From assembly GCA_043801595.1 (NCBI GenBank), contig JAZDLW010000019.1:32949-96948 (forward strand): a DNA stretch of 64,000 bases, written 5' to 3'. This DNA is from Candidatus Aenigmatarchaeota archaeon (GTDB lineage Archaea > Aenigmatarchaeota > Aenigmatarchaeia > JACPZZ01). Both the position numbers and the translations under genes were made by a program. The notes below the pieces were generated by a model that did not search any database, had not been told where the DNA came from, and worked only from the letters and a program-made list of their open reading frames with translations. Shown here piece after piece: positions 25,141-60,682 of the stretch. Numbering within the stretch: the first letter of the stretch is position 1; every line of letters begins with the position of its first letter.

Positions 25141-25163
25141 TAAAAAGAATAGCGCCGAGGAAG
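25141..25163. repeat. Distal direct repeat of the tRNA 3' end (att-like)
   Basis: TAAAAAGAATAGCGCCGAGGAAG matches TAAAAAGATTAGCGCCGAGGAAG at 27275-27297 in 22 of 23 positions. Confidence 0.8.
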
Positions 25164-25750: not shown

Positions 25751-25764
25751 TAGCGCCGAGGAAG
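25751..25764. repeat. Internal direct repeat of the tRNA 3' end (att-like)
   Basis: TAGCGCCGAGGAAG is identical to 25150-25163 and 27284-27297. Confidence 0.7.
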
Positions 25765-26466: not shown

Positions 26467-27180
26467 ATGGCAGTCGATGACAAGCTATCTAAATATTGTA
26501 AAGGAATAATAGAATACCCATTTTATAGCCATCCTTATTTTTCTGACGCTATTAACGCAAACGGAACTGTAGATGTTAAAAAATTTCAACAACGATATCA
26601 GACATTCTTATCAGATAAACGATTAAGACGATCCCTCTCTGATACTGAAAAAAAAGTGTTGCTGGGAAGAGCGGGCATAGAAGGTTACCAGAAAACCCAA
26701 AAGGAGATAGGAGCGGAAATGCGGCGATCCGGTAACAGAGTTTTTCAAATAGAAACAAAGGCGTTGAGAAAATTACTGCCAAGAAGCAACGGAGGTGTAT
26801 TAGACGCACTCTACCTTGAAGAGTTTGAAGCCACAAGTGCGAAGTACGCTAAATCGAAAGATTTTGATTTGGATTATATAAACCGAATTAAATCGCAGGC
26901 GGCGGCAAAGATCATGGAGGAAGAAGAAAAGACACGCAAACAAATACAGCTAACTGAAGAAAATGCTCGTCATAAGGCTCATTTAACTGAGTACGGTATC
27001 CAACATTTAGGACTTTCATCACGCACAAATAACAGCTTATTGAGAGGAGGCGTCGATGTCATAGATCAGCTAGAAGAAAAAAGTGATGAAGAATTACTTA
27101 AAATACGAAATGTAGGAGTAAAGTCAATAAGAGAAGTTCGTGAAAGACTGGAAGCTTATCACAAACAAAGGAAGCCCTGA
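26467..27180 (+). CDS. DNA-binding protein fusing a sigma-70 region-4-like HTH to an RNA polymerase alpha-CTD-like domain
   Basis: LSDTEKKVLLGRAGIEGYQKTQKEIGAEMRRSGNRVFQIETKALRKLL fits the sigma-70 region 4.2 pattern. LGLSSRTNNSLLRGGVDVIDQLEEKSDEELLKIRNVGVKSIREVRERL fits the alpha-CTD helix-hairpin-helix pattern. Confidence 0.6.
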   Translation: MAVDDKLSKYCKGIIEYPFYSHPYFSDAINANGTVDVKKFQQRYQTFLSDKRLRRSLSDTEKKVLLGRAGIEGYQKTQKEIGAEMRRSGNRVFQIETKALRKLLPRSNGGVLDALYLEEFEATSAKYAKSKDFDLDYINRIKSQAAAKIMEEEEKTRKQIQLTEENARHKAHLTEYGIQHLGLSSRTNNSLLRGGVDVIDQLEEKSDEELLKIRNVGVKSIREVRERLEAYHKQRKP

Positions 27181-27274: not shown

Positions 27275-27297
27275 TAAAAAGATTAGCGCCGAGGAAG
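27275..27297. repeat. Proximal att-like repeat overlapping the tRNA 3' end
   Basis: TAAAAAGATTAGCGCCGAGGAAG. Positions 27287-27297 are the discriminator plus the 3' acceptor strand and the start of the T-stem of the minus-strand tRNA. Confidence 0.8.
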
Positions 27298-27520
27298 GGA
27301 TTTGAACCCTTACGGGACTTGCGCCCCACCGGATTTCTAAGGCTCCAAACTTAAAGGATTCCTCATCTCGCCGCCGTGATCAGAATCAAGCCTTGTTGTC
27401 ATAGCCTCTCAAGTATCGCCTATGCACCAATCATCTCTGGTATCAGCATATCCGGCGCATTTAACCTGGTTCTGCCTTCGATTGTACAGCTGGAATACTT
27501 CCAGCAGCAAAAACCTCGGC
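27287..27520 (-). tRNA. Class II tRNA (probably tRNA-Ser) interrupted by two intervening sequences
   Basis: On the minus strand, the 5' acceptor strand GCCGAGG+T is at 27520-27513. The D-arm and 5' anticodon stem GGCAGAACCAGGTTAAATGCGCCGGA are at 27476-27451. The 3' part at 27333-27287 is TCCGG-T-GGGGCGCAAGTCCC-GT-AAGGGTTCAAATCCCTT-CCTCGGC-G. It contains a long variable arm with a GCAA loop, a canonical T-arm, an acceptor strand complementary to the 5' end, and G73. The gaps are ~36 nt and ~110 nt. The anticodon is ambiguous: GCT at 27447-27445, or AGA/TAG at about 27339-27336. Confidence 0.6.
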
Positions 27521-27702
27521 TCTCCTCGGCATATTTTAATTGCGCGGAAAGGTTAATAAACGTCCGTTTGGCACGCCGCGTTTAGATACCAAGCTACGTC
27601 AAAAAATCACGCATAAATATGGCATATGACGTAGTTGAATGACAGGTATTATAAAAAAAACATTCGCTAAATCTAAAAGAAACGAAAAACGGAATAATTG
27701 TT

Positions 27703-60556: not shown

Positions 60557-60682
60557 TGGGGAAACCGTGATTTGAACACGGGTCACCGACTAATTCTAAA
60601 TCTTTCTTTCCCTTAAGGCTTTCTTGTTGAAAGAAAGGCTTACCCGAAGCCGGTATCTTAGACCAGGCTGGACCATTTCCCC
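60557..60682 (-). tRNA. tRNA-Pro (anticodon CGG) with a 51-nt intron at the canonical 37/38 position
   Basis: On the minus strand the acceptor stem is GGGGAAA/TTTCCCC with A73. The D-arm is GTCC-AGCCTGGTCTAA-GAT. The anticodon stem is CCGGC/GTCGG and the loop is TT-CGG-G|intron|A. The T-arm is CCGTG-TTCAAAT-CACGG. The intron spans 60592-60642. CCA is not encoded. Confidence 0.8.

Follow-up and report, generated by a model that had tools for sequence, protein, structure and literature searches.

The 64-kb window considered here, by which we mean the whole stretch of DNA analysed (C21:32949-96948; contig JAZDLW010000019.1), comes from the 814-kb assembly (32 contigs, 45% G+C) of a DPANN archaeon, Candidatus Aenigmatarchaeota. 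On its minus strand, between positions 27520 and 27287, lie four tRNA segments of 8, 25, 7 and 48 nt, separated by intervening sequences of 36 nt at tRNA position 8/9, 37 nt at 30/31 and 73 nt at 37/38. The segments carry the features of a class II tRNA-Ser, namely a long variable arm (GGGGC-GCAA-GUCCC) and G73, and the Ser(CGA) gene at C3 has exactly the same acceptor strand, GCCGAGG. Very probably, the locus is a tRNA-Ser(UGA) gene split by three introns of the bulge-helix-bulge (BHB) type; that the 73-nt intron of this gene is in turn a box C/D guide RNA aimed at 16S rRNA is, as a combined explanation read from the sequence, probable. An initial annotation had listed tRNA strings that all occur on this strand (GCCGAGG plus U at 27520-27513, the D-arm and 5′ anticodon stem at 27476-27451 and the remainder at 27333-27287), together with a perfect 7-bp hairpin inside the first gap (27505-27489) and an extra copy of the acceptor heptamer GCCGAGG (27530-27524), both of which are present.

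The 3′ end of the tRNA, CTTCCTCGGCGCT, is found in three copies, at 27285, 25752 and 25151, where 0.03 would be expected, in keeping with the proposal of the initial annotation that the gene is an integration target. Downstream of the gene, two inserted segments lie between these direct copies; they include a sigma-70-r4/alpha-CTD gene (26467-27180), and the 3′ end of the tRNA is intact. The sequence CUAAUC follows directly; CCA is not encoded and would be added post-transcriptionally.

When the exons are joined, ARAGORN calls tRNA-Ser(UGA) in all six orthologues tested, which bears out the earlier assignment to a class II serine tRNA. In its genomic form the gene escapes the standard finders. 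ARAGORN with default settings reported no tRNA in the whole window and, with one intron allowed, still left the locus uncalled; Rfam at gathering and E-value thresholds did not call it either, giving only a weak tRNA-Sec-like match on the 3′ half. Neither program placed a different, uninterrupted tRNA gene here, an outcome that the initial annotation had allowed for. The other serine isoacceptors of the genome, which it had proposed to survey, read CGA, GCU and GGA, and no second UGA anticodon was found; of the 153 serine codons in six confidently called genes of the window, 36 are UCA. Interruption is the norm for tRNA genes in this genome, the ARAGORN count rising from 17 to 37 once introns (up to 190 nt) are allowed. 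The genome encodes a single-copy EndA of 201 amino acids (C13:31962-32564), a single subunit with no alpha-beta pair, and the ligase RtcB (C5:7695-9005).

A BLAST search of the locus against 60 related genomes returned same-genus matches in G001, G002, G004, G005 and G006 and one in a sister genus, G007. The metagenome contig OBEQ010251188.1 provides an eighth copy, so that the comparison covers the window and seven orthologues. Intron number varies considerably within this set. The G007 copy has two introns (30/31 and 37/38) and the window copy three, the additional one lying at 8/9; G001, G002, G005 and G006 have four, with one more in the loop of the variable arm. The metagenome copy has five, a D-loop intron being added to the four, and the G004 copy has six intervening sequences, including insertions in the D-loop and T-loop and a nested insert in the variable arm. 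In G007, GCCGAGGUGGCUGAAUCUGG is continuous, which shows that the first gap was inserted between U8 and G9, as had been suspected from the sequence of the window. Across the eight copies and two genera the exons are kept, being either invariant or compensated, and the introns diverge. Conservation of the second gap is patchy: the stretch after CCGGAUAU is wholly different among genomes, and from AUAGGCGAUACUUGAGA onwards the sequence is nearly invariant, G007 included. Coordinates of the exons, introns and candidate intron elements are collected in Table 1.

Table 1 Features of the tRNA-Ser(UGA) locus, in the order of transcription; box and guide assignments are putative.
Feature	Position in window	Strand	Remarks
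Extra 5′ acceptor strand copy GCCGAGG	27524-27530	minus	presumed 5′ leader, 3 nt before exon 1
Exon 1, GCCGAGGU	27513-27520	minus	tRNA positions 1-8
Intron 1	27477-27512	minus	36 nt at 8/9; contains 7-bp hairpin GCUGGAA-GUA-UUCCAGC; BHB; missing in G007
Exon 2, GGCAGAACCAGGUUAAAUGCGCCGG	27452-27476	minus	positions 9-30: D-arm, G26, 4 nt of 5′ anticodon stem
Intron A	27415-27451	minus	37 nt at 30/31; strict BHB in all 8 copies
Exon 3 (micro-exon), ACUUGAG	27408-27414	minus	A31, C32, U33, anticodon U34-G35-A36, G37
Intron B	27335-27407	minus	73 nt at canonical 37/38; box C/D small RNA-like; relaxed BHB, conserved sequence
Box C, AUGACAA	27396-27402	minus	after terminal stem GGC (27406-27404) and 3-nt kink-turn loop
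D′ guide, CAAGGCUUGAUU	27384-27395	minus	12 nt; invariant in the eight-copy family
Box D′, CUGA	27380-27383	minus	CCGA in G007
Box C′, AUGAGGA	27360-27366	minus	invariant in 8 copies
D guide, AUCCUUUAAGUU	27348-27359	minus	12 nt; pairs with 16S 908-918
Box D, UGGA	27344-27347	minus	terminal stem GCC (27343-27341) directly after
Exon 4	27287-27334	minus	A38, 3′ anticodon stem UCCGG, variable arm, T-arm, CCUCGGC, G73
att-like repeat, AGCGCCGAGGAAG (plus-strand reading)	27285-27297; copies 25752-25764, 25151-25163	plus	tRNA 3′ end

The BHB geometry used for calibration has a central helix of 4 bp flanked by two bulges of 3 nt, each cut after its second nucleotide. A scan of the precursor alone yields dozens of chance motifs, and only those supported by the orthologues were kept. 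The motif of intron A is strict in all eight copies, with a perfect central helix (CGCC/GGCG) and 3-nt bulges cut as GG↓A and AU↓A. The junction thus reads ...CGCC-GG↓A ... GGCG-AU↓A-CUUGAG, and splicing unites GCGCCGG with ACUUGAG. Its intron-side helix is compensated, as UAUGC/GCAUA, UAUUUUG/UGAAAUA and, in G007, UAAUUUUGGUA/UGCCAAAAUUG. Intron B has a central helix CUUG/UUAG (C-G, U-A, U.U and G.U) between bulges AG↓A and AA↓A, and an intron-side helix of GGCU/AGCC in the window, AGCU/AGCU in G006 and AC/GU in G007. For intron 1, an outer helix GC/GC adjoins the central helix CGAG/AUCG, which forms three pairs and a G.A here and four pairs in G006; the intron-side helix covaries among relatives (CGGGCC/GGUCUG versus CGGACA/UGUCUG). 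A paralogous Ser(CGA)-type gene of the same genome (C10:2203-2322) is likewise split by BHB introns at 8/9 and 30/31, with central helices CGAG/CUCG, of four pairs, and CACC/GGUG, and its spliced product is a valid Ser(CGA), indicating that these insertion sites recur in the host genome. This gene and a second, uninterrupted Ser(CGA) gene (C3:6466-6550) have the same acceptor stem and T-arm, and their D-arms and anticodon stems differ at few positions; they are possibly paralogues, or else a sign that the metagenome-assembled genome mixes strains.

The introns confined to relatives can be assigned motifs of the same kind. That of the variable arm appears when one mismatch is permitted in the flanking helices; it has the central helix GCGU/ACGU and leaves the product GGGGC-GUAA-GCUCC. 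In G004, the D-loop motif is GGUU/AACC and the T-loop motif UUCA/UGAA, the latter with an outer helix AAGGG/CCCUU, and both introns (locus L005, 1320-1740) form a perfect BHB including both flanking helices. The five-intron metagenome copy corresponds to 3780-4130 of locus L051.

The feature on which the anticodon depends is the micro-exon. ACUUGAG is invariant in all eight copies, with intron A on its 5′ side differing in sequence and length. In a trimmed alignment, 91.8% of cells are paired and both partners have changed in four of the pairs; the covariation score was reached by none of 500 shuffles, and slid controls paired in just 22-51% of cells. G007 carries a U after CCGG and, because A31 is supplied by the micro-exon, its 31-39 pair (A31-U39) remains intact.

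The initial annotation had instead proposed two introns of about 36 and about 110 nt, with the anticodon loop taken from the sequence beside the CCGGA and UCCGG halves, giving GCU, AGA or UAG. Its first intron stands; the second resolves into a 37-nt intron, a 7-nt exon and a 73-nt intron, and none of the three anticodons is the UGA supplied by the micro-exon. We consider the two-intron arrangement highly improbable, even though the CCGGA and UCCGG halves are complementary and ARAGORN takes the product of CCGGA joined to UUAGAAA as a Ser(AGA). None of four single-intron versions tested for the second gap forms a BHB: the central helix has one to three of four pairs, the intron-side helix 0-2 bp, and the exon-side flanking helix is missing in every version. 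The products are Ser(AGA), an erroneous Ala call or a loop that cannot be read. A34 is not known to be used in archaeal tRNAs, which counts against Ser(AGA), and Ser(GGA) is already present in the genome. The anticodon GCU is not conserved either, relatives having UUU there, and the U after CCGG in G007 would turn the 31-39 pair of a single-intron product into U.U. Such a product would also leave the invariant ACUUGAG and the perfect BHB upstream of it unexplained. A Leu(UAG) with a shifted stem was rejected, as it needs two nucleotides between the D and anticodon stems and A73, and G73 is present. The silence of the tRNA finders and Rfam, and the inserted cassette bracketed by att-like repeats next to the locus, would suit a pseudogene in decay or the remains of repeated element insertions. 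We regard this too as very unlikely: BHB motifs can be folded at all three junctions, exon conservation extends over eight copies and two genera as the introns diverge, the locus is the sole source of a UGA anticodon in a genome where UCA codons are common, the tRNA 3′ end has been rebuilt intact at the att repeat, and many tRNAs of this genome are split likewise.

With the three-intron tRNA-Ser(UGA) gene as the likely architecture, the conservation of intron B calls for comment. Its layout is A-GGC-U-AUGACAA-(12 nt)-CUGA-(13 nt)-AUGAGGA-(12 nt)-UGGA-GCC-UUAGAA, which suggests with reasonable confidence a box C/D RNA. In such RNAs box C (consensus RUGAUGA) and box D (CUGA) form a kink-turn (K-turn) beside a terminal stem, the rules of which are well established. 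In intron B, three nucleotides separate the 5′ strand of the terminal stem from the G of box C, and the 3′ strand begins immediately downstream of box D, which is K-turn geometry; the stem covaries (GGC/GCC, AGC/GCU in G006 and AAC/GUU in G007). Box D occurs as UGGA, CGGA, UUGA or AUGA, so that just the GA is invariant, as the K-turn predicts, and the tandem G.A/A.G register is kept. The C′/D′ pair likewise retains its G.A and A.G, and the pair between G5 of C′ and U2 of D′ is G.U in the genus and G-C in G007. In every one of the eight copies, C and D′, and likewise C′ and D, are spaced by exactly 12 nt. Intron B is conserved across the two genera, with inserts in G006 and G007 confined to the D′-C′ spacer; boxes (apart from D′ in G007), spacings and both guides are maintained while the terminal stem covaries. 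A search of 1.63 Mb (both strands) for an equally loose motif gives one hit, the candidate itself.

Homologous introns were found in the tRNA-Ser(UGA) genes of G022, G034 and G048, which belong to two other families. There the intron is single, at the canonical position and 65-74 nt long, and it has the same order of C/D boxes and a D′ guide core GGCUUGA that lies two nucleotides before CUGA. Their D guide differs, reading CAAGGAGGUGRA, which is similar to a Shine-Dalgarno sequence of the kind complementary to the 16S 3′ end. Genes for L7Ae, Nop5 and fibrillarin are present in the host genome, and the excised 73-nt intron, probably circularised, would assemble with these proteins and direct 2′-O-methylation. 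The fibrillarin gene (C23:157166-157809) is in two overlapping frames (157166-157648 and 157636-157809), compared with a single frame in relatives, and this split is a frameshift or assembly error. In another intron of the genome, that of tRNA-Leu(UAA) (C23:81872-81993), the sequence CUUAAGU is complementary to the anticodon loop of the host tRNA and is followed at once by CUGA-N8-AUGAAGA, similar to a D′/C′ K-loop; neither a C nor a D box was found in it.

Box C/D guides direct modification of the target nucleotide that faces the fifth position upstream of box D or D′ (the N+5 rule). Targets were read in the rRNA of relatives, with positions in E. coli numbering (that of A1408 set by the 1400-1410 sequence). 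The D guide forms 10-11 contiguous pairs with a universally conserved 16S segment, AACUUAAGGGA (908-918), of class members, and the D′ guide eight contiguous pairs with 1405-1412 of the same-genus 16S, AUCAAGCC. The same-genus 16S (G004) has A at 1405, opposite the U carried by the D′ guide of the eight-copy family. By the N+5 rule, U912 is a plausible target of the D guide and A1408, in the decoding centre, a plausible target of the D′ guide; we hold the naming of these two nucleotides to be evenly balanced between right and wrong. In G034, the D′ guide forms 11 Watson-Crick pairs with its own 16S at GUCAAGCCAUC, on the decoding-centre strand, a match reached by 5 of 1000 shuffles. A Watson-Crick target search with both guides across the window's own assembly gave nothing convincing, and no guide target above chance was seen in the same-genus 23S. 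Pairing of the D′ guide with the T-loop or position 39 was ruled out by eye, as the sequence does not fit. The same-genus rRNA genes are heavily interrupted, the 16S gene spanning 3.3 kb (G004:C2:760-4093) and the 23S gene 5.8 kb (G004:C2:18182-24027); in the former, an insert of ~35 nt follows right after position ~919, adjoining the predicted target of the D guide.

Several observations weigh against the combined interpretation. Two of the three BHB motifs are relaxed, with G.A in the central helix of intron 1 and U.U in that of intron B. Boxes C and D match their consensus at only five of seven and two of four positions, and the motif definition used over 1.63 Mb was set after the candidate had been seen. 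No other C/D small RNA was recognised in the genome, where a canonical search gave only coding-region noise. The window's own assembly has neither 16S nor 23S, searches for rRNA in it having found none. In the 16S loci of the class the best score of the D guide is reached by 7-23 of 500 shuffled guides, and in the same-genus locus by 82 of 500. The 8-nt match of D′ is not significant alone, 221-360 of 500 shuffles reaching at least that score in the four 16S loci without a better off-target match. Moreover, the two guides are partly complementary, and a helix or a nested BHB motif is another reading of the region.

This last property, together with the degenerate boxes and a D′ match to 16S that is not significant in the eight-copy family, is what one would expect if intron B were conserved for structure only, whether as a K-turn scaffold for L7Ae, as a guide-guide helix that aids the precursor, micro-exon or BHB, or as the relic of a nested intron. 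The 12-nt segments pair as AAGG..AUUC with GAAU-CCUU, in a BHB-like arrangement with a 4-pair central and a 6-bp intron-side helix, and in the minimum-free-energy fold the D guide is paired to the micro-exon. We judge a purely structural role unlikely, while giving it appreciable weight. Pure helices at this locus covary, yet the guide 12-mers are invariant over two genera; a structural role would not account for two spacings of exactly 12 nt or for a tandem GA register held across four variants of box D. The other families keep the D′ core and swap the D guide for another 12-mer, as guide RNAs evolve, and one of these homologues (G034) matches the 16S decoding site over 11 pairs.

A different target is also conceivable. 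Eight pairs, five Watson-Crick and three G.U, can form between the D guide and positions 30-37 (G30 plus the micro-exon); this duplex is present in the minimum-free-energy fold of the precursor, and it places U34 opposite the fifth nucleotide upstream of box D. As in the tRNA-Trp intron of Haloferax, the guide might therefore produce 2′-O-methylated U34 (Um34) on its own precursor, or perhaps on tRNA-Leu(UAA), whose loop ACUUAAA/G matches it with seven Watson-Crick pairs, 16S then not being the target. Pyrococcus small RNAs do target N34 of Leu(UAA), and tRNA-targeting small RNAs usually have one orphan guide (PMC7994747). The cis duplex, with its five Watson-Crick and three G.U pairs, falls short of the 10-11 pairs with 16S, and the homologous introns of other families are without an anticodon-loop guide. 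We accordingly rate exclusive tRNA targeting as unlikely; self-targeting at U34 is the weaker reading beside the predicted rRNA targets, and is compatible with them.

For the three-intron gene with its candidate guide RNA, a splicing pathway can be proposed. The single 201-aa EndA would cut within the 3-nt bulges and RtcB would join the exons. Intron A is probably removed before intron B: the outer helix of the intron B motif has only one pair in the precursor, and after loss of intron A the CCGGA/UCCGG stem stacks on the central helix, from which this order is predicted. Intron A first would keep the 7-nt exon covalently attached throughout.

The extra acceptor strand may be part of the same process. 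The duplication GCCGAGG-ARA-GCCGAGG is found in all genus members and is missing from G007, which likewise has no 8/9 intron. Both genes of the host genome with an 8/9 intron have a second leader copy of GCCGAGG(U), 3 nt upstream here and 15 nt upstream in the C10 gene (C10:2179-2216); genes without this intron (Ser-UGA of G007 and Ser-CGA at C3) have a single copy of the acceptor strand. The BHB at 8/9 engages nucleotides 1-6 of exon 1, which are then unavailable for the acceptor stem. The leader copy may therefore be a decoy partner that pairs with the 3′ acceptor strand, CCUCGGC, during splicing, a role that would explain its occurrence in 8/9-intron genes; with two gene families only, common descent is an alternative. 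The link between the 8/9 intron and a duplicated leader strand points to a way in which acceptor-stem introns could be presented to the endonuclease.

A broader and more tentative proposal, which we hold somewhat less probable than its negation, extends to the whole class. The canonical intron of tRNA-Ser(UGA) would host a C/D small RNA methylating A1408 of 16S rRNA and, in the family of the window, U912 in helix 27; this family would later have gained the 30/31 and 8/9 introns, with the guide possibly holding the micro-exon through base pairs while splicing proceeds and the leader copy possibly acting as decoy. If true, this would couple the making of one tRNA to modification of the ribosome's decoding site.

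Other introns of the genome deserve brief mention. In the window, tRNA-Pro(CGG) (60557-60682, minus strand) has a 51-nt intron and is seen by ARAGORN only when introns are allowed. A near-identical long element, CUCACAGGAAAC...UUUCCUGUGCACGAAAACAUGAUUGUUUUCGUUGUUU, lies in the introns of three tRNA genes (C21:17809-17969, C30:22003-22176 and C19:6366-6533), which ARAGORN labels Cys, Asp and 'Pyl(cta)'; it looks like a mobile intron family. A recurrent hairpin, AAAC-N-GAAGCAUA...UAUGCUUC-AGUCG, is nested in several introns (the variable-arm and 8/9 introns of relatives; C21:19854-20013), and G005 and G006 each have a copy placed within the loop of a second one.

Recognition of this locus restores to the annotation an essential tRNA that alone reads UCA and that standard finders miss. 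Its 7-nt anticodon exon, and the up to six introns of its relatives, stretch the known reach of BHB splicing and raise the question of how so short an exon stays placed between two cuts. A working C/D guide for 16S, if confirmed, would be a tRNA-intron-borne guide acting at the decoding centre of the ribosome, and would explain why the intron has persisted across families.

Multi-intron tRNA genes are known from Thermoproteales, with a published maximum of three introns per gene (PMC4033280), and from Asgard archaea, with up to five in one gene (bioRxiv preprint 2026, 10.64898/2026.10.13.758758). The present locus resembles them in having BHB introns at non-canonical sites that standard finders miss, in a probably ordered removal and in an intron content that varies among close relatives. 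It differs in its host, an Aenigmatarchaeota-like DPANN archaeon with a single 201-aa EndA and no alpha-beta pair, and in that two introns bracket a 7-nt exon with the whole anticodon; its orthologues reach five (metagenome contig) and six (G004) intervening sequences. An alpha4-type EndA with an L3 loop is described from DPANN archaea, whose incomplete tRNA sets were predicted to hide disrupted genes that need manual curation (PMC5829648); the Ser(UGA) locus is such a case.

The nearest precedents for the candidate guide are likewise tRNA introns. In Euryarchaeota the tRNA-Trp intron is a C/D guide (PMC11408192, PMC7994747), and tRNA-directed small RNAs often have one orphan guide (PMC7994747). 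Intron B shares with the Haloferax tRNA-Trp intron a canonical-position BHB, C, D′, C′ and D boxes with two putative guides, and one guide able to pair with the host anticodon loop such that the rule points to position 34. Unlike that intron, it resides in tRNA-Ser(UGA), the best predicted targets of both its guides are in 16S, its boxes C and D are degenerate and no guide fits position 39. In Nanoarchaeum equitans, the 66-nt intron of elongator tRNA-Met is a C/D box small RNA-like RNA (PMC3491384), which, as here, is a long canonical C/D-like intron of a DPANN archaeon with an imperfect box C. The intron described here differs from it in host tRNA and sequence, in its conservation across several families, in its predicted rRNA targets and in sharing its gene with two further introns.

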